A stretch of 64,000 nucleotides of DNA from the NCBI GenBank assembly GCA_963801905.1, contig CAWDGP010000014.1, positions 16,215 to 80,214 on the forward strand, given 5' to 3'. The first letter of the stretch is position 1; every line of letters begins with the position of its first letter. A program made the position numbers and the translations under genes. The notes under the pieces were generated by a model, which saw only the letters and a list, made by a program, of their open reading frames with translations, did not search any database and was not told where the DNA came from. Source of the stretch: an uncultured Actinomycetota bacterium. Its GTDB lineage: Bacteria > Actinomycetota > Thermoleophilia > Gaiellales > Gaiellaceae. This document shows positions 55,289 to 61,850 of this stretch, piece by piece.

Positions 55289-55912
55289 GTGGACTTCGAG
55301 GAGCTCTTCGACCGCGAGCGGAGGCGATACGAGGACGGGATCGCGCGTCTCGATCCGGAGCAGCTCGTGCGGACGGGCAACGCGGCGTGGGGAGCCGGGC
55401 TCTCGCTGCTCATGCTCGGGCGAGACGCGGAGGCAGCCGAGTGGCTCGACCGCGCGGCGAGGCGCTGGCGCGAGAGCTGGGAGCACGCGACCGAGACGTC
55501 GTGGGGCCGGCCGATCGGCGCGATCAAGGCCGAGCTGATCGCGGGCCGCGACGAAGCGGCGGCCGGATACGCGGGCTGGGCGCTCGAGCTCGGAACGGTC
55601 GAGGCCGAGTCGCCGATCGGGCGCTACGCCGCGACGCTCGCGCTGCTCACACTCGAGCGGTGGGGCGACGCGGCGGAGCTTGCCGCCACCCTCGTCGGCT
55701 TCCCACCGGACGTGGCGGCCGCGCTTGCTGCGATCGCGGGGGGCGACCTGGCCGCGTGTAACGCGGCCGTCGAGTTGGTCCTCGTCTCGTTCGAGACCCG
55801 GGACGAGTTCCTCGAGGACGTCCCGGTCGCGGACACGGTGATCGTGCTCGACCGGCTTGCGCAACGCCGCGGTCTCGGGACGAGCCTCCGGCGTTCGGCG
55901 CTCCTACCCTGA
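55289..55912 (+). CDS. Hypothetical helical protein
   Basis: 207-aa ORF with a GTG start and non-shadow composition. No motif recognised. Confidence 0.55.
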   Translation: MDFEELFDRERRRYEDGIARLDPEQLVRTGNAAWGAGLSLLMLGRDAEAAEWLDRAARRWRESWEHATETSWGRPIGAIKAELIAGRDEAAAGYAGWALELGTVEAESPIGRYAATLALLTLERWGDAAELAATLVGFPPDVAAALAAIAGGDLAACNAAVELVLVSFETRDEFLEDVPVADTVIVLDRLAQRRGLGTSLRRSALLP

Positions 55913-56578: not shown

Positions 56579-57359
56579 GCTCCTTGCTTCGCTCCATCGC
56601 GGCGCTGATCGCGTTCAGGAAGGCGGCGCGGACGCCGGCTTGCTCGAGCTCCCGGATCGCCCGGATCGTCGTCCCGCCCGGCGACGTGACGCTCTCCCGC
56701 AGCTCCACGGGATGCACCTTCTCGTCGCGCAGGAGCTTCGCCGTGCCGAGCATCGTCTGCACGACGAGCTTCGTGGAGATCTCCCGCGAGAGGCCGAGGA
56801 GGATCCCGGCCTCGATCATCGCCTCGGCGAGGAGGGCGTAGTACGCGGGCCCGGATCCGGAGACGGCCGTGATCGCGTCCATCTGGTCCTCCGGCACCTC
56901 GACGACGTCGCCGACCGCGCGCAGCACCGTGCCGGCGCGGTCGAGATGCTCCCGCCCGGCGTGCCGCCCCGAGCACATGCCGGCGATCCCCTCGTGGACG
57001 GTCGACGGCGTGTTCGGCATCGCCCGTACGACCGGGACGTCCGCGGCGACGTGACGCTCGATCCTCGCGGTCGTGATCGCCGCGGCGATCGAGAGCACCG
57101 TCTGCTCCGGCGAGAGCAGATGCCCGATCTCGCCGAGCAGGGTCTCGATGTCTTGCGGCTTCACCGCGAGCACGACGACGTCGGCGCCGCGAATGGCGTC
57201 GGTGTTGGAAGTCGTGGTCTCGACGCCGTGTCGCTCGTGGAGCTCGTCGGCTCGCTCCTGCCGCCGCGAGGTCGCGACGATGTCGGCCCAGTCCGAGCTA
57301 CGCAGCCCGGCGAGGAGCGACTCGCCGATCTTGCCGGTTCCGAGGATCGCGATTCTCAT
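56559..57359 (-). CDS. proC: Pyrroline-5-carboxylate reductase
   Basis: MRIAILGTGKIGESL.., VTSPGGTTIRAIRELE. Confidence 0.9.
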   Translation of the reverse strand: MRIAILGTGKIGESLLAGLRSSDWADIVATSRRQERADELHERHGVETTTSNTDAIRGADVVVLAVKPQDIETLLGEIGHLLSPEQTVLSIAAAITTARIERHVAADVPVVRAMPNTPSTVHEGIAGMCSGRHAGREHLDRAGTVLRAVGDVVEVPEDQMDAITAVSGSGPAYYALLAEAMIEAGILLGLSREISTKLVVQTMLGTAKLLRDEKVHPVELRESVTSPGGTTIRAIRELEQAGVRAAFLNAISAAMERSKELARGDE

Positions 57360-58197
57360 GACGCAAGCCTACGAGTCCGGAGCCGTATCCCGCCAGGAGG
57401 TACACGCTCGCGATCCCGGCCCACTCGCCGTAGGGCTCGAGGAGGGCATCGGTCTCCTCAGCCTCGACGCGCCGTCCCCAGAGCTCTGACGCGAGCTTGA
57501 CCAGGCCGAGGTCGCGCGCCAGGCCTCGCTCGTAGCGGCCGAGGCCCTGCAGGCAGATCACGCCGGCCGACCAGGGGCCGAGGCCGCGCTCGCGCTCGAG
57601 CCGCGCCGCGGCGACCTCGGTCGGGACCCCCTTCAACAGCTCGAGGTCGGTACCGCGGCAGAGCCGGACGAGCGTCGCGCCGCGCCGGGCTCCGAGCCCG
57701 AAGCGGCAGAGCTCGGCGGGTGCGTACCGCGCGAGGTCGGCGGAGGTCGGCGCGCCGTGGAGCTCGCCGAGCTGCCGGGTCGAGGCCCGGACGACGCGCC
57801 GCTCGATCGCCCGAGCCTCGCGCGAGGTGATCAGCTGGCCCGCCACCGCCCGCAGCAGCGCGTGGGCGACCGTGGCCGTCCGCAGCGGGCGCATCCCGCG
57901 CAGGTGACGGGTCGCACGCCCCACCAGCGGATCGTCGGCGAACCGGCGCAGGAACTCGGAGTGGTCGTCGTCGACCGCGAGGACGAATCGCATCCGTGAC
58001 AGACCCTCCTCGCTCGCGGCCTGGACGCATACCGCGCCGTCGGGCCGCTGCCACGCCCGCGCCTGCTCGAGGCCGCCGGCGCAGGGGATGGTCGCCGTGA
58101 GCACTCCGTCGCGAACCGAGCGGGTGGCGTCGCTCCCGTGCCGGGCCGAGAGCCTGAGCGAGTAGGGCCCTGCGGGCCTGACGACGTCCTCGACCAC
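57298..58197 (-). CDS. DNA-3-methyladenine glycosylase II (AlkA-like, HhH-GPD)
   Basis: GLGPWSAGVICLQGLG..ARDLGL. The last ~20 codons overlap proC by 61 nt and look unnatural, so the 3' end is uncertain. Confidence 0.8.
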   Translation of the reverse strand: MVEDVVRPAGPYSLRLSARHGSDATRSVRDGVLTATIPCAGGLEQARAWQRPDGAVCVQAASEEGLSRMRFVLAVDDDHSEFLRRFADDPLVGRATRHLRGMRPLRTATVAHALLRAVAGQLITSREARAIERRVVRASTRQLGELHGAPTSADLARYAPAELCRFGLGARRGATLVRLCRGTDLELLKGVPTEVAAARLERERGLGPWSAGVICLQGLGRYERGLARDLGLVKLASELWGRRVEAEETDALLEPYGEWAGIASVYLLAGYGSGLVGLRHENRDPRNRQDRRVAPRRAA

Positions 58198-58259: not shown

Positions 58260-59582
58260 TCAGACGCCGCTGGCCGACCCGGCCTGCAGGTTCGATGCGA
58301 CCTCGGCGGCCCGTTCGAAGACGTCGAGCGCCTCGCGCTCGCGCCCGGAGTCCCGCAGGAAGCGGCCGTACGACCGCAAGGCGGCGGCGTGCTGGCGTAC
58401 GGTGCCGTGGTCGGCAAGAAGCTGGAGCGCCTCGCGGAATGCCTCGTCTGCGCCGTCCGCGTCCCCGCTCCCGGCGCGGGCCTCGGCGACGACGAGCCAG
58501 GCGGCGCCGCGCTCGTTCGGCAGGTCCTCGGCCAGTTGCAGAGCGGCCGAGGCGAGGTGCTCGGCCCCGATCCAGTCACCCGAGACCGCTGCGCACATCG
58601 CCTGCAGCCGCCGGATCGTCGCGAGGTCCTCGGCCGCCGGCGCGGGGCCGAGCAGCCGTTCGGCCTCGTCGAGGTGGTGAAGCGCCCCACCGAGGTCGTC
58701 GTCGGCGCTGATCGTCGCGTCGGCGCATGCCACGTGTGCCCGCGCCAGATGCACGGTGTCCTCGGTCGCTTCGAGGAGCGCGACCGCCCGGCGGAAGCTG
58801 TCCAGCGCCGCGAGCGGCTTCGCCTGCTCGAGCGACAGCCGTCCGAGCGACCAGTACAGCCGCACGCGGGTGTACCGGTCGGCGCCGTCACCCCCGCCCG
58901 CGAAGAGCTCGCCGACCACGGCCTTCGCCCGCTGGAGCTCCCCGAGGTCGGTGAGCGCGTAGCTCAGGTAGGTGCTGTAGCGGACGCGGGCGTGCATGTT
59001 CTCGGGCTCCACCCGGGCGACCTCGTCGAGCGCCCGCTCGAACAGCGTCACCGCCTCGCGCGGCGAGCCCGCCGCTGCGTACGCGCGGCCGAGTGTCGAG
59101 AAGACGTCGGGTCGTGACGGGGCCGTGACGAGCTCGGAGCCGACGACCTCCGAGAGCTCGGCGATCGTCCCCGCGTGATCGCCCCGCGCTGCGGCCTCGA
59201 GCCCGAGGACGATCCGGGCGCGGGTCGCCGCCGCGACGTCGGCGGCCGCTTCGGCGTCGGCCAGAAGCTCGCTCACCGCCTCGGCATCGGCCTCCCCGTC
59301 GAGCCTCAGCCGGAGCTCCTGCTCGGCGAGGCGCAGCTCGCGGAGCTCCGAGGCGTCGAGCTCCGACCCTGTCTCCAGATACTCGGGCGTGACGCCGAGC
59401 TTGCTCGCGAGCATCCGAAGCGCCTTCATCGACGGCGTCCGTGCTCCGGCCTCGATTCGCGAGATGTAGGCGTACGTGACCCCCGGCGCCGACAGGTCCC
59501 GCTGGGACGCCCCGCGCTCGAGCCGGAGGCGGCGCAGCCGTCCTCCGATCGTCTCCCCGCTCGGCTCCGACCCGCCCGCCAT
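58260..59582 (-). CDS. XRE-family HTH + TPR-repeat regulator (RRNPP-like architecture)
   Basis: IGGRLRRLRLERGASQRDLSAPGVTYAYISRIEAGARTPS (HTH_XRE), followed by ~350 aa of TPR-like repeats. 440 aa, intact. Confidence 0.85.
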   Translation of the reverse strand: MAGGSEPSGETIGGRLRRLRLERGASQRDLSAPGVTYAYISRIEAGARTPSMKALRMLASKLGVTPEYLETGSELDASELRELRLAEQELRLRLDGEADAEAVSELLADAEAAADVAAATRARIVLGLEAAARGDHAGTIAELSEVVGSELVTAPSRPDVFSTLGRAYAAAGSPREAVTLFERALDEVARVEPENMHARVRYSTYLSYALTDLGELQRAKAVVGELFAGGGDGADRYTRVRLYWSLGRLSLEQAKPLAALDSFRRAVALLEATEDTVHLARAHVACADATISADDDLGGALHHLDEAERLLGPAPAAEDLATIRRLQAMCAAVSGDWIGAEHLASAALQLAEDLPNERGAAWLVVAEARAGSGDADGADEAFREALQLLADHGTVRQHAAALRSYGRFLRDSGREREALDVFERAAEVASNLQAGSASGV

Positions 59583-59643
59583 CCGTGGATCTTGCCCGCC
59601 TTGTTCGCCAACGTCAATCAGTCCATGTCTTCAGGTGACAGGA

Positions 59644-59661
59644 TTGACAACAAAAGAATTC
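59644..59661 (+). promoter_or_regulatory. TTGACA hexamer followed by the perfect 8-bp palindrome AGAATTCT in the regulator/peptide divergent region
   Basis: TTGACA at 59644-59649 and AGAATTCT at 59654-59661, in a locally AT-rich patch. No convincing -10 found on the + strand. Confidence 0.35.
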
Positions 59662-59717
59662 TCGTGTCTTCTCCCGGGGTGGGCTCTTGCTCTCGTCGAG
59701 GAAGGAGGTGCTTCCGA

Positions 59718-59813
59718 ATGAGACTCGTCTCTCCCCGCATCCAGCTTGCGGTGGTGGCGGTCGGCGCCGTGATCGCCGCCGCGCTGCTCGGCGGTTGCCC
59801 CTGGGGCCCGTAG
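59718..59813 (+). CDS. Candidate 31-aa mini-lipoprotein / pheromone-precursor-like ORF MRLVSPRIQLAVVAVGAVIAAALLGGCPWGP
   Basis: GGAAGGAGG RBS 9 nt upstream of the ATG. Lipoprotein-type signal peptide (lipobox LLGGC) with only 5 residues after cleavage. A 12-bp hairpin follows immediately downstream. Confidence 0.45.
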   Translation: MRLVSPRIQLAVVAVGAVIAAALLGGCPWGP

Positions 59814-59828
59814 CCCCGGCCGGCGTAC

Positions 59829-59858
59829 GCGGGCGGAGGCAGCCGCGCCTCCGCCCGC
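59829..59858 (+). terminator. Strong hairpin GCGGGCGGAGGC-N6-GCCTCCGCCCGC after the 31-aa ORF (terminator/attenuator)
   Basis: Perfect 12-bp GC stem, read directly. Weak U-tract (GCCGTTAGTCT). Confidence 0.55.
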
Positions 59859-59875
59859 GCCGTTAGTCTCGATCG

Positions 59876-60487
59876 ATGCTGAACGGCGCCGCGGCTCGCG
59901 TCTCCCTGCGGAGCCGGGAGCGGAAGCTCCGCCTCTTCATCGACCTCTTCCAGCCCGGCCCGGAGACGACGGTCGTCGACCTCGGCGTCACCGACGCGCC
60001 CTTCGGTGCGGGGTCGAGTGACAACTTCTTCGAGGCGCTCTACCCGTGGCCGGGGCAGATCACCGCCGTCGGCCCCACCGAGCTCGACCGCTTCTCCGCG
60101 GCGTTCCCGCGAGTGACGACGGTCCGCGCCGACGGCCGCGAGCTTCCGTTCGTCGACGGCCAGTTCGACCTCGGCTTCTCGAACGCGGTCGTCGAGCACG
60201 TCGCGGGCGGCCGGGACGGCCAGCGCCGCTTCGTCGCGGAGCTCTGCCGGGTCGCGGAGCGCGTCTTCGTCACGACCCCGAACCGGCTGTTCCCGATCGA
60301 CCCGCACTCGCTGCTGCCGTTCGTCCACTGGCTTCCCGACGGAGACCTGCGCCGCCGCGCCCTCCGCGCCCGCGGCTTCGACGACGTCCTCGAACCGCTC
60401 GGGCCGCGCGAGCTCGCTTCGCTCTTCCCGTACCCGGTTCGGATCGTCGGCCGGGGGATGACCCTCGTCGCGGCCGGCCCTGCATGA
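59876..60487 (+). CDS. Class I SAM-dependent methyltransferase (Methyltransf_11-like)
   Basis: VVDLGVTDAP.., PFVDGQFDLGFSNAVVEHV. 203 aa. Confidence 0.8.
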   Translation: MLNGAAARVSLRSRERKLRLFIDLFQPGPETTVVDLGVTDAPFGAGSSDNFFEALYPWPGQITAVGPTELDRFSAAFPRVTTVRADGRELPFVDGQFDLGFSNAVVEHVAGGRDGQRRFVAELCRVAERVFVTTPNRLFPIDPHSLLPFVHWLPDGDLRRRALRARGFDDVLEPLGPRELASLFPYPVRIVGRGMTLVAAGPA

Positions 60488-61850
60488 AGCGCTCTCCTGT
60501 CTGGATTCTCCACGTGTTCATCGTGGGGCTCGCGCTCCACAACCTCGTCGCGGCGGAGCTCTACGGCGCCGGCGTCCGCGGCACGGCGCTCGACGTCGTC
60601 TCCGCGTGGAAGGAGGTGCTGCTGGCGGTCGGGCTCGTGCTCGTCTACCGCCACGGCCTCGGGTTCCGCCCGGCACTCGTCGACTGGCTCGCGCTGGCCT
60701 TCGCCGCCGTCGTCATCGTCTACGCGCTGATCCCGCAGCACGTCCTCGGCGGCGGAGCGACCCATCACGGCGTCCTCCTCGGCGTTCGCCACGACGCTGC
60801 TCCCGGTCGCGGCGTACTTCTTCGGGCGCGGGCTCGATCTCAGCGTGCGCGACGTGCGCCGTCTGGGAGCGACGCTCCTCGCGTCGGCTTCGGCGGTCGC
60901 CGCCTTCGGCCTGGTCGACATCTATACGATCCCGCTCTCCTGGTGGCGCAGCTCGGGCGCACCGGGCTGGTTCTCGAATCAGCTCGGGTTCGGCTACACC
61001 GGCCTCTCCGGGCTCCCGGAGAACTTCGTCTACAACACGGGGAACGAGCATCCGCTGCGGCGCCTCGTCTCGACGTTCCTCTCACCGCTCGCGACGTCGT
61101 ACATGCTCGTGACCGCGCTCCTGCTCTGCGCAGCGTGGCTCCTGCGTGCCCACGCCCGCCTCGCCGCGTGGATCCCGGTGACGGCGCTCCTCTTCGCCGG
61201 TCTCCTCTGGACGCACTCCCGCTCCTCGTACATCGCGCTGGCCCTCGGCCTCGTCGTGTACGCGGCGCTCCGGCCGCAGTGGCGCTGGGGCCTCCTCGGG
61301 AGTGCTGCGGCGGTGGTCGTCGTCGGGCTCGTCTTCGTGAAGGCCTACCCGCACATCGCCCCGGTGACGAGCTTCACGCCCAAGGAGCTCATCCAGCAGC
61401 GGCAGCACGCGCACTCGCAGGCCGGCGGGCCGGCCGTGAGCGCGGGCGGCTTCGAGGATGCGAGCACCTCGAGTCATCTCCGGAGCCTGCGCGACGGTAT
61501 CGAGACCGTGCTCCGCCACCCGCAGGGGTACGGGCCCGGCAACGCCGGCTCGACCGCCGCCCGCACCGGGGTGCAGATCAAGGCAGGCGAGTCCACGTAC
61601 ACCGAGCTCGGCGTCGACGCCGGCCTCGTCGGCGGTCTTCTCTTCGTCGCCTGGTCGCTCGCCGTCCTCTGGCGGCCTCGTTCGCTGCCGTGACGCCTGG
61701 CTCGCCGCGGTTCTGGTGGCGATGCTCGCGCTCGCCCTGCAGACGGACATCATCGGCGTCCCCTGGGTGGTGTACGTGATCTGGCCACTGGCCGGCTGGC
61801 GTATGTCCCACCCCGACACTTGGCCGAAAGAGCGTCTTGCGCCGCCGTGA
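60484..61850 (+). pseudogene. O-antigen ligase/polymerase (Wzy_C)-like membrane protein, two frame breaks (~60765-60795 and ~61668-61676)
   Basis: Three frame segments join into one multi-TM protein. Segment 1: MKRSPVWILHVFIVGLALHNL... Segment 2: ..ATTLLPVAAYFFGRGLDLSVRDVRRLG..LLWTHSRSSYIALALG... Segment 3: ..DAWLAAVLVAMLALALQTDIIGVPWVVYVIWPLAGW... ATGA overlap with the methyltransferase. Confidence 0.75.

Follow-up and report, generated by a model that had tools for sequence, protein, structure and literature searches.

The question raised by this locus is whether a very small open reading frame (ORF), which starts 135 bp away from a gene for a regulator with an XRE-type helix-turn-helix (HTH) and tetratricopeptide repeats (TPR) and runs in the opposite direction, is a gene at all and, if so, what it may do together with that regulator. 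The locus lies at positions 58,260 to 59,875 of a stretch of 64,000 nucleotides from an uncultured Gaiellaceae bacterium of the Actinomycetota (assembly GCA_963801905.1, contig CAWDGP010000014.1), and this whole stretch is called the window in the following. An initial annotation, made from the letters alone, had proposed a peptide-signalling unit of the RRNPP type and had described the small product as little more than a lipoprotein signal peptide. Judged from comparative data, we find that the small ORF is a real gene and that it belongs to the regulator; more tentatively, we propose that the two may form an RRNPP-like peptide/receptor loop that differs in its signal from the one first imagined.

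The small ORF is a conserved protein-coding gene

A pattern-plus-tblastn scan with one genome per species gave 295 loci with relatives of the regulator. The best 80 of these 295 (46-79% identity) all come from metagenome-assembled genomes (MAGs) labelled Gaiellaceae, Gaiellales, Thermoleophilia or Actinomycetota. The initial annotation had suggested a tblastn check for conservation of the small ORF and for purifying selection on its frame, and the outcome was positive on both counts: at least 68 of the 79 loci with upstream sequence have a homologous ORF that is placed and oriented alike (tblastn and frame-by-frame inspection), and the pairwise ratio of nonsynonymous to synonymous substitution rates (dN/dS) is about 0.4. 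The coordinates first given for the 31-codon ORF in the window, divergent from the regulator across a gap of 135 bp (59583-59717), were likewise correct (Table 1).

The 71 copies found at the 68 loci mostly encode 25-33 amino acids, with one call of 39, and their products align without gaps from a conserved arginine to the C-terminus. In the case of the window, the product consists of a basic N-terminus (R2, R7), 17-18 apolar residues and the tail GGCPWGP. There is fair conservation in the N-terminal motif S-x-R-[IV]-[QK] as well. At the conserved positions of the tail, all four proline codons and all four glycine codons are in use: the first proline of PWGP is encoded by CCC (33) or CCG (17), the glycine by GGC (37), GGG (13), GGT (7) or GGA (2), and the last proline by CCG (45), CCC (7), CCA (5) or CCT (2). 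This synonymous codon turnover at the P, G and P positions indicates that selection keeps the amino acids and not the nucleotides. In sum, the small ORF is a real gene that is selected at the protein level.

Neither Pfam nor NCBIfam has a family for the peptide, and a full-text literature search for 'PWGP' gave nothing relevant. Searching 1.84 billion representatives by phmmer with the 31-mer yielded only 11 relatives at E <= 1e-3. The exact 31-amino-acid product was found on 14 soil-metagenome contigs, where it is labelled 'hypothetical protein' by public gene callers. At one locus (L006, 3748-3840, minus strand) there is no stop codon past PWGP and the frame reads on as ...CPWGPVGLRSG, which may reflect a mutation or an error of the assembly, or else be a natural extension.

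The C-terminal tail is the most constrained part of the product

The last 11 residues of the family follow the consensus A-A-[LFM]-[NLV]-G-[GSA]-x-P-W-G-P-stop. Position x is cysteine in only 12 of the 59 sequences ending in WGP, and these 12 belong to the closest relatives of the window; the other sequences have T, S, L, V, M, E, N, D, G, W or F there and retain PWGP. The lipobox of the initial annotation, with only CPWGP left after cleavage, is thus confined to a small part of the family. Rarer tails are HWGP, FWGP, GWGP, DWGP, PHGP, PWPP, PWW, PWN and PWVP, and a few sequences carry one additional residue past PWGP (PWPPM also exists). Between species, most changes of the tail fall on x and on positions -6, -8 and -9.

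Tandem copies allow the tail to be compared with the rest of the product within one genome. They were found in four genomes, with two copies at L016 (3590-3831), L018 (3531-3841) and L019 (3639-3879) and three copies at L074 (3483-3869), each copy with its own Shine-Dalgarno (SD) sequence. Within one genome, the last 11-15 residues of the copies are identical. At the codon level, the last 11 codons of these tandem paralogues differ by 21 synonymous and 0 nonsynonymous changes, the preceding 18 codons by 18 synonymous and 36 nonsynonymous changes (Fisher p = 3e-8; 5e-5 with independent pairs only). Because the tails do carry synonymous differences, recent gene conversion is ruled out. Such a pattern, in which the tail stays the same within one genome and the hydrophobic part drifts, would be expected if a pre-peptide had an export segment that can be replaced and a mature part that is specific. 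The analogy drawn at first with pheromones that are cut out of lipoprotein signal peptides does not fit this pattern, as the hydrophobic part is the least constrained one.

Regarding this hydrophobic part, its longest apolar run is 16 residues in the median. On the Hessa scale, the best 19-residue window reaches a median of +2.1 kcal/mol, with values below 0 in only 10% of the sequences. Such a short and marginally hydrophobic segment would be more in line with a signal peptide than with a stable anchor.

The small ORF belongs to the regulator and not to other neighbours

On the side of the regulator, the gene order is the same at nearly every locus, namely the regulator, an AlkA-like gene, ProC, 6-phosphogluconolactonase and a TPR protein of 207 amino acids, which marks the regulator as a vertically inherited core gene. 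The far side of the small ORF differs by clade: a methyltransferase with a Wzy-like protein and a 163-amino-acid protein in the close clade, a Wzy-like protein alone, a VOC/glyoxalase-type protein, or others. Most distant loci lack the methyltransferase, and a Wzy-like membrane protein is encoded downstream in about half of the loci.

A paralogous regulator clade (L065, L070/L073, L091 and L092) has kept the divergent small ORF in unrelated neighbourhoods, with tails ending in EGWGP or MDWGP. At L091 and L092, two metagenome contigs of this clade, the genes beyond the small ORF are convergent, so that no downstream gene is available for regulation in cis. The persistence of the pair while the neighbours change, together with the relocated paralogues, points to a two-gene module and not to a leader peptide. 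Altogether, the small ORF belongs to the regulator and not to the far-side neighbour, and the two have remained linked through speciation, duplication and relocation. The methyltransferase, Wzy-like and further genes beyond the small ORF, which had been put forward as the regulated output, are not conserved neighbours, and the paralogous modules just described have convergent genes next to them.

Two copies of the regulator occur in the same MAG, CAVXZG01: a syntenic one without small ORF (L032) and a relocated paralogue with an ORF ending in EGWGP (L065). Soil metagenomes contain the paralogue clade in abundance, and among its neighbours are genes for a DyP peroxidase, an aldo-keto reductase and a PAS protein.

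The regulator combines an HTH domain with a TPR superhelix

The RRNPP-like layout foreseen for the 440-amino-acid regulator, an XRE-type HTH followed by TPR-like repeats, was borne out. Pfam assigns residues 12-69 to HTH_3 (8.6e-10) and HTH_31 (7.4e-9), and the remainder to TPR_2 (7e-13) and TPR_12 (1.6e-11), and also to TPR_8 and TPR_MalT. Orthologous regulators have 429-470 amino acids, and HTH residues 15-72 are nearly invariant (79 orthologues). A confident AlphaFold2 model based on a 75-sequence alignment (predicted local distance difference test, pLDDT, 91.6; predicted template modelling score, pTM, 0.81) has an HTH of five helices, then a long linker helix at residues 77-95 and another 17 helices, and past the HTH these 18 helices are arranged as about 9 TPR-like pairs.

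When the regulator was compared with known receptors, as had been proposed, the full-length protein and its TPR part gave different answers. The full-length family profile has PlcR as its top sequence match in the PDB (E = 1e-10), in a collinear alignment of query residues 8-203 with PlcR residues 2-201 that covers the HTH, the linker and the first repeats; the single regulator sequence matches PlcR at E = 1.7e-5. The score of the PlcR match comes mostly from the HTH, and a profile restricted to the TPR part matches generic proteins such as consensus TPRs, LGN, Streptomyces AfsR, OGT and LapB. At the structural level, a Foldseek search of the PDB placed the PlcR-PapR-DNA complex (3u3w) at rank 16 and gave the highest target-normalised TM-scores, 0.64-0.67, for Rap-pheromone complexes of phage phi3T. 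The regulator matched no RRNPP-specific model of Pfam or NCBIfam, and in these two collections neither TIGR01716 nor another Rgg model matched at E <= 0.01. By sequence, the TPR domain is thus best described as a generic canonical TPR and not as specifically RRNPP. As a whole, the architecture resembles that of RRNPP receptors, notably of the HTH-9TPR type, while homology of the sensor domain to RRNPP is not established.

At the residue level, helix 236-252 carries the family-invariant polar and aromatic residues Y237, R241, W244 and R248 on one face, and the neighbouring helices hold the likewise invariant R201, D212, D235, R264 and D275. The conserved face of helix 236-252 would suit a ligand site. 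The top query-normalised TM-score of the Foldseek search, 0.63, belongs to human APPBP2 (8jal) at a root-mean-square deviation of 12-15 Å, which we regard as a mere curiosity; in 8jal this TPR protein was solved with an RxxGP C-terminal degron, and TPR superhelices of such a size can read short ...GP tails at a C-terminus.

The control region and the transcription units

The features of the locus are collected in Table 1.

Table 1. Coordinates of the regulator gene, the small ORF and their surrounding elements in the window.
Feature	Position	Strand	Description	Basis
Regulator gene	58260..59582	-	XRE-type HTH and TPR superhelix, 440 amino acids	ORF, Pfam, AlphaFold2
HTH DNA-binding domain	59376..59549	-	Residues 12-69	Pfam coordinates
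TPR-like domain	58275..59285	-	Residues about 100-436; candidate ligand-binding part	AlphaFold2 secondary structure
Small ORF	59718..59813	+	31 amino acids and TAG; MRLVSPRIQLAVVAVGAVIAAALLGGCPWGP	Conserved in at least 68 species
Last 11 codons of small ORF	59778..59810	+	AALLGGCPWGP; most constrained part, candidate mature/functional peptide	Conservation, tandem-copy comparison
Putative regulator promoter	59589..59617	-	-35 TTGACG (+ strand 59612-59617), 17-nt spacer, -10 CAAGAT (59589-59594), 6 nt to ATG	Sequence; function putative
Small-ORF promoter/control block	59634..59672	+	Conserved GGTGACAGGATTGACAACAAAAGAAT	Alignment; regulation through block putative
Shine-Dalgarno sequence	59700..59708	+	GGAAGGAGG, 9 nt before ATG	Sequence
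GC-rich hairpin	59828..59859	+	Perfect 12-bp stem (59828-59839/59848-59859), 8-nt loop, 15 nt past stop	Probable terminator
Boundary to methyltransferase	59864..59878	+	-10-like TAGTCT (59864-59869), 6 nt, methyltransferase ATG 59876	Sequence; function putative

On the regulator side, the position of the putative promoter suggests that the regulator mRNA may be leaderless, and CGTCAA together with a (G)ATCATGCC-type element is conserved in the aligned intergenic regions. The block in front of the small ORF holds a -35 element TTGACA (59644-59649), AGAATTCT (59655-59662) and a poor -10-like TCTTCT (59667-59672). In nearly all loci TTGACAACAAA[AT]G is kept, and in the close clade the conservation extends to a 26-bp block. 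In every clade, the hexamer 17 nt past the -35 lacks an A at position 2 (TCTTCT, TTGGGT). The combination of a consensus -35 with a defective -10 suggests that the small-ORF promoter probably needs the regulator or an activator.

Several features of this region had been pointed out in the initial annotation, and most of them stood up to comparison. The TTGACA box and the palindrome AGAATTCT are present upstream of the small ORF as described, but the palindrome is not conserved, even among close relatives. The ribosome-binding site, held to be the best in the window, is among the best but not unique, as GGAAGGAGG occurs 3 times when both strands are counted. In the family as a whole, a GGAGG(T) SD sequence precedes 71 of 71 small ORFs, whose 3' end is in most cases 6-12 nt away from the start codon (range 3-14). 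The perfect 12-bp hairpin past the stop was found where it had been placed (59828-59839 with 59848-59859), and a hairpin follows the stop in most loci; its sequence differs and its pairing is kept, with a median uninterrupted stem of 13 bp, a median start about 11 nt past the stop and, when its energy is compared with that of dinucleotide shuffles, a median z of -2.4. The VOC clade has a T-run after the hairpin. Past the hairpin, the methyltransferase clade has a TANNNT box, 6-8 nt and then the next start codon, with no SD. A -10-like box 6 nt before the start and the lack of an SD are the usual actinobacterial leaderless signature, so that the methyltransferase probably has a leaderless promoter of its own. 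The suggestion of a self-contained small transcription unit gains support from the SD and the following hairpin, and the small ORF would form its own monocistronic unit between a putative promoter and a putative terminator.

Scanners for E. coli-type promoters and terminators reported no canonical element at the locus, and Rfam no family there (one sub-threshold chance match). The arrangement of TANNNT, 6-8 nt and a start codon recurs at L001-L003, L007, L008, L011, L016, L018, L020, L024, L027, L038 and L074. The small ORF, with its long 5' untranslated region and near-perfect SD, stands between two apparently leaderless genes, the regulator and the methyltransferase, which both have a -10-like hexamer 6 nt ahead of their start codon and lack an SD.

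It is important to add that a distant clade (L026, L030, L044, L047, L050, L053 and others) has a different palindrome, TACCC-N5-GGGTA, about 10-25 nt downstream of the TTGACA box. Both arms of it change jointly, to TACGC-N5-GCGTA and GACCC-N5-GGGTC (L031, L037, L067, L049), and this joint change marks the palindrome as a candidate site for protein binding; the clade of the window lacks it and has the non-conserved AGAATTCT in its place.

A possible peptide/receptor loop and its alternatives

Which mechanism could lie behind this pair? Our preferred interpretation, held tentatively and at somewhat less than even confidence, is a self-contained two-gene regulatory module with an RRNPP-like peptide/receptor loop. 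The mini-gene would be transcribed from a regulator-dependent promoter and translated efficiently. Its pre-peptide would combine an export signal (one or two basic residues and 16-18 apolar ones) with the constrained tail ...G-[G/S/A]-x-P-W-G-P-COOH. It would be inserted into or exported across the membrane and then cut, so that a C-terminal peptide of 5-11 residues ending in PWGP would be released and accumulate outside the cell; proline at position 2 and at the C-terminus would shield the released peptide from exopeptidases. After re-import, the peptide would bind the TPR superhelix of the regulator and alter the action of the HTH on the shared 135-bp divergent promoter region. Such a loop would unite the geometry of Rgg/SHP, a receptor of NprR/AimR size and a C-terminal mature peptide of the Phr/AimP kind. 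Export, the cleavage site, re-import, binding and the direction of regulation are steps that we infer, and the pair is considered as working like an RRNPP system, without being filed as a member of RRNPP.

Several observations weigh against this loop. Firstly, about 8 species, which fall into a few subclades of the regulator tree, have an intact regulator and no adjacent small ORF. In the 7 ORF-less loci that were examined, the regulators keep almost all family-conserved residues, thus loss of the small ORF does not visibly relax the regulator. Secondly, regarding the receptor, Foldseek matched the regulator model mainly to generic TPR superhelices of the PDB (LGN/Pins, consensus TPRs/CTPR, OGT, subunits of the APC), and no RRNPP receptor was found in the best 60 matches of the TPR-only profile. 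Thirdly, regarding the peptide, column counts revealed no cleavage position that fits the -1/-3 rule in every sequence, and the spacing from the arginine to P-W is identical in nearly all sequences, a constancy for which a membrane-spanning helix would account no less well than a cleavable signal. Within the family, the PWGP tail hardly varies, unlike the usual pherotype diversity of RRNPP systems. A mirror-tree/partial-correlation test gave no co-evolution of peptide and TPR domain beyond shared phylogeny: the tail tracks ProC and AlkA as well as the TPR domain, and there is consequently no specific signal. Finally, the search for an operator gave no inverted repeat common to all clades although the HTH is invariant.

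These points lead to the alternative that survives best, which we consider somewhat less likely than the loop: the product could be an uncleaved membrane miniprotein, a single N-in/C-out helix with the arginine at the inner and PWGP at the outer interface. In one variant its short cytoplasmic N-terminus would serve it to tether the regulator or to act against it, in the manner of membrane miniproteins such as Prli42; in another it would be the main target of the regulator, with an envelope function of its own. Tryptophan and proline are residues typical of the interface when they stand at a helix end. The fixed residue count from the arginine to P-W in an ungapped alignment, the conserved N-terminal S-x-R-[IV]-[QK] and the Wzy-like membrane protein downstream in about half of the loci agree with such a helix, as do a tail without pherotype-like diversification, the lack of detectable specific co-evolution with the TPR domain and the persistence of regulators without a small ORF. 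However, the apolar stretch is short (median 16) and marginal on the Hessa scale (median +2.1 kcal/mol, below 0 in 10%), the cytoplasmic N-terminus would have just 3-8 residues, and the strictest constraint falls on the extracytoplasmic C-terminal tail and not on the helix or the cytoplasmic end. In addition, two to three tandem copies with identical tails are more typical of genes for secreted peptides.

The lipoprotein version of a peptide signal, in which a lipobox LLGG-C is cut before the cysteine and either a CPWGP lipopeptide or a fragment like cCF10 or cAD1 is sensed by a PrgX/TraA-like receptor, appears improbable by comparison with the peptide/receptor loop set out above. It draws on the lipobox-like tail L-[LM]-G-G-C-P-W-G-P of the window and its 11 closest relatives. 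Across the family, with cysteine in only 12 of 59 sequences and other residues in its place while PWGP stays, the non-conserved cysteine contradicts it, and this reading was rejected at the family level. Moreover, the hydrophobic segment, from which such a fragment would come, takes 36 of 36 nonsynonymous differences between the tandem copies and the tail 0. The regulator, with 440 amino acids and about 9 TPR pairs, also contrasts with the roughly 300 amino acids of PrgX/TraA, and it matches no Rgg/PrgX-specific model.

A cis-acting leader or arrest peptide of the TnaC type, where a ribosome pausing at ...PWGP-stop would cover the 5' arm of the hairpin and control read-through, was considered as well and is slightly more improbable still. 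The tryptophan and terminal proline right at the stop, with the variants PWPP and PWPPM, and a hairpin 5-25 nt past the stop in most loci would suit it, as would the choice of stop codons, which is skewed to TAG and TAA in 66 of 71 small ORFs (TAG 51, TAA 15, TGA 5), against about 47% in eight neighbouring gene families (TAG 174, TGA 222, TAA 24). This skew is nominally significant; as evidence for termination stalling it was rejected as weak, since the neighbouring families each have a lineage-fixed stop and the samples are not independent. What speaks against an arrest peptide is that the ORF follows the regulator and not the neighbouring gene. The downstream gene varies by clade, the convergent next genes at L091 and L092 leave nothing for read-through, and in the methyltransferase clade the next gene has a -10-like box of its own and no SD, suggesting a leaderless mRNA. 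Two or three tandem ORFs with their own SDs do not fit a leader either. An attenuator of the TnaC or SecM type was thus rejected, as a dependent co-directional downstream gene is what defines it and the genes found here are variable or convergent.

The idea that the frame between the genes is open by chance in GC-rich DNA, or is what remains of a decayed lipoprotein gene, which could appeal to the many spurious ORFs of high-GC DNA and to a peptide without known family, is practically negligible and refuted by the comparative data, with frame, length, SD and C-terminal motif kept in at least 68 species under synonymous codon turnover, a dN/dS of about 0.4, and an ORF that was duplicated and moved together with the regulator.

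Comparison with known peptide/receptor systems

For RRNPP(A) systems a five-point signature has been published (Bernard et al. 2023, PMC10075063), and four of its five properties are found in the pair: a propeptide of 31 amino acids (signature 10-100), a receptor of 440 amino acids (signature 250-500), TPRs in the receptor (by Pfam and in the AlphaFold2 model) and direct neighbourhood, here 135 bp apart and divergent, which holds for the relocated paralogues too. The fifth property, an export signal, is defined there as Sec/SPI by SignalP or as SHP/PrgQ-type for PptAB; the peptide, signal-peptide-like in its basic N-terminus and its apolar run of marginal hydrophobicity, would have it only in a qualitative sense.

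In terms of arrangement, the pair is like Rgg/SHP and ComR/XIP of streptococci (PMC10075063 and general knowledge), where a cytoplasmic regulator of the XRE-HTH and TPR type is likewise encoded divergently from a very short peptide gene. As in Rgg/SHP, the peptide has a basic N-terminus, a hydrophobic stretch and C-terminal residues that are the active part there and the candidate one here, and the putative promoter of the peptide gene lies in the shared intergenic region. Unlike Rgg, with about 280 amino acids and 5 TPRs, the receptor here has 440 amino acids and about 9 TPR pairs, and it lacks the Rgg C-terminal domain TIGR01716; by this lack and by its size, it is not an Rgg. Further differences to Rgg/SHP are the host, a Thermoleophilia actinobacterium, and the near-invariance of the PWGP tail across the family.

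With respect to size, the receptor is closer to the branch of NprR/NprX, AimR/AimP and Rap/Phr, with about 9 TPRs (HTH and about 9 TPRs in the case of NprR and AimR). In this branch, a small pre-peptide is exported and its last 5-7 residues at the C-terminus serve as the mature signal, which we count as a likeness to the loop proposed here, and additional copies of the peptide gene occur in Rap-Phr systems (PMC9765709), reminiscent of the tandem copies here. The propeptide genes of the branch are, however, usually downstream and co-directional and encode 38-50 amino acids with a pro-region before the mature peptide, whereas the small ORF is divergent, has 25-33 codons' worth of residues and no pro-region. 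No sequence-level relationship of the TPR domain here to NprR, AimR or Rap was detected.

What links the pair to PlcR/PapR of the Bacillus cereus group is the place of PlcR at the head of the PDB matches of the family profile; the difference is that PlcR has 285 amino acids and 5 TPRs and that PapR, with 48 amino acids, is encoded downstream. PrgX/TraA with their lipoproteins differ by the invariant lipobox cysteine, which is not conserved in the family described here, and the pair is hence not of the PrgX type.

Membrane miniproteins such as Prli42 of Listeria, with 31 amino acids, partner with cytoplasmic signalling complexes. The product of the small ORF is like Prli42 in having about 30 amino acids, a single hydrophobic helix and a short cytoplasmic N-terminus. 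The two have no sequence relationship, and the constrained extracytoplasmic tail and the linkage to an HTH-TPR regulator set the product here apart.

Neighbouring genes

Directly downstream of the regulator lies a gene for 299 amino acids (57298-58197, minus strand) that has no Pfam match and matches the NCBIfam model for DNA-3-methyladenine glycosylase 2 (AlkA) weakly (E = 6e-6). As this AlkA-like gene overlaps proC by 62 nt, the regulator may be the first gene of an operon that also includes the AlkA-like gene, proC and pgl. The protein of 207 amino acids, four genes away from the regulator (55289-55912, plus strand), has a weak TPR_16 match and is syntenic in most loci at 43-84% identity. 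On the other side, public gene calls on identical contigs have a Wzy_C protein of 454 amino acids that starts at, and overlaps, the stop of the methyltransferase, followed by the 163-amino-acid protein and an FG-GAP protein of 673 amino acids. Compared with the mechanically called ORF of 282 amino acids (60845-61693), the 454-amino-acid call indicates that the true start is probably further upstream (approximately 60484-61848, plus strand).

Implications

RRNPP and RRNPPA systems have been described in Firmicutes and in their phages and plasmids, and signalling in Actinomycetota as based on small molecules (PMC10075063, PMC9765709). The statement of the initial annotation that RRNPP-type systems are described essentially only in Firmicutes and their phages agrees with our literature search, which gave none outside Firmicutes; the search also gave no description of the gene pair or of a PWGP peptide family. 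In a structural phylogeny of RRNPPA from 2025, the missing outgroup is named as an open question (PMC12700828).

Overall, we regard the comparative support for the module as solid and that for the proposed signalling mechanism as no more than moderate. A bolder proposal, which we hold with a little more reserve than the loop itself, is that the pair could be the first RRNPP-like system of cell-cell peptide signalling in Actinomycetota, a vertically inherited core module of Gaiellaceae/Thermoleophilia that is occasionally duplicated and whose minimal pre-peptide could set its specificity through a single variable residue. If this were true, a non-Firmicutes pair of HTH-9TPR regulator and peptide could be the outgroup that roots RRNPPA, or else an independent invention of the same logic.

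In conclusion, two genes have been kept, duplicated and moved together in a soil lineage that is abundant and has hardly been studied. The pair offers a concrete test case, with a candidate ligand of 5-11 residues, a defined receptor and a control region of 135 bp. If the peptide is the ligand, both the phylogenetic range and the minimal design of such systems would widen; if the product is a membrane miniprotein partner, the pair would be a new and very widespread combination of regulator and miniprotein. Either way, a gene of 31 codons that is labelled 'hypothetical' or missed by most pipelines is under selection.

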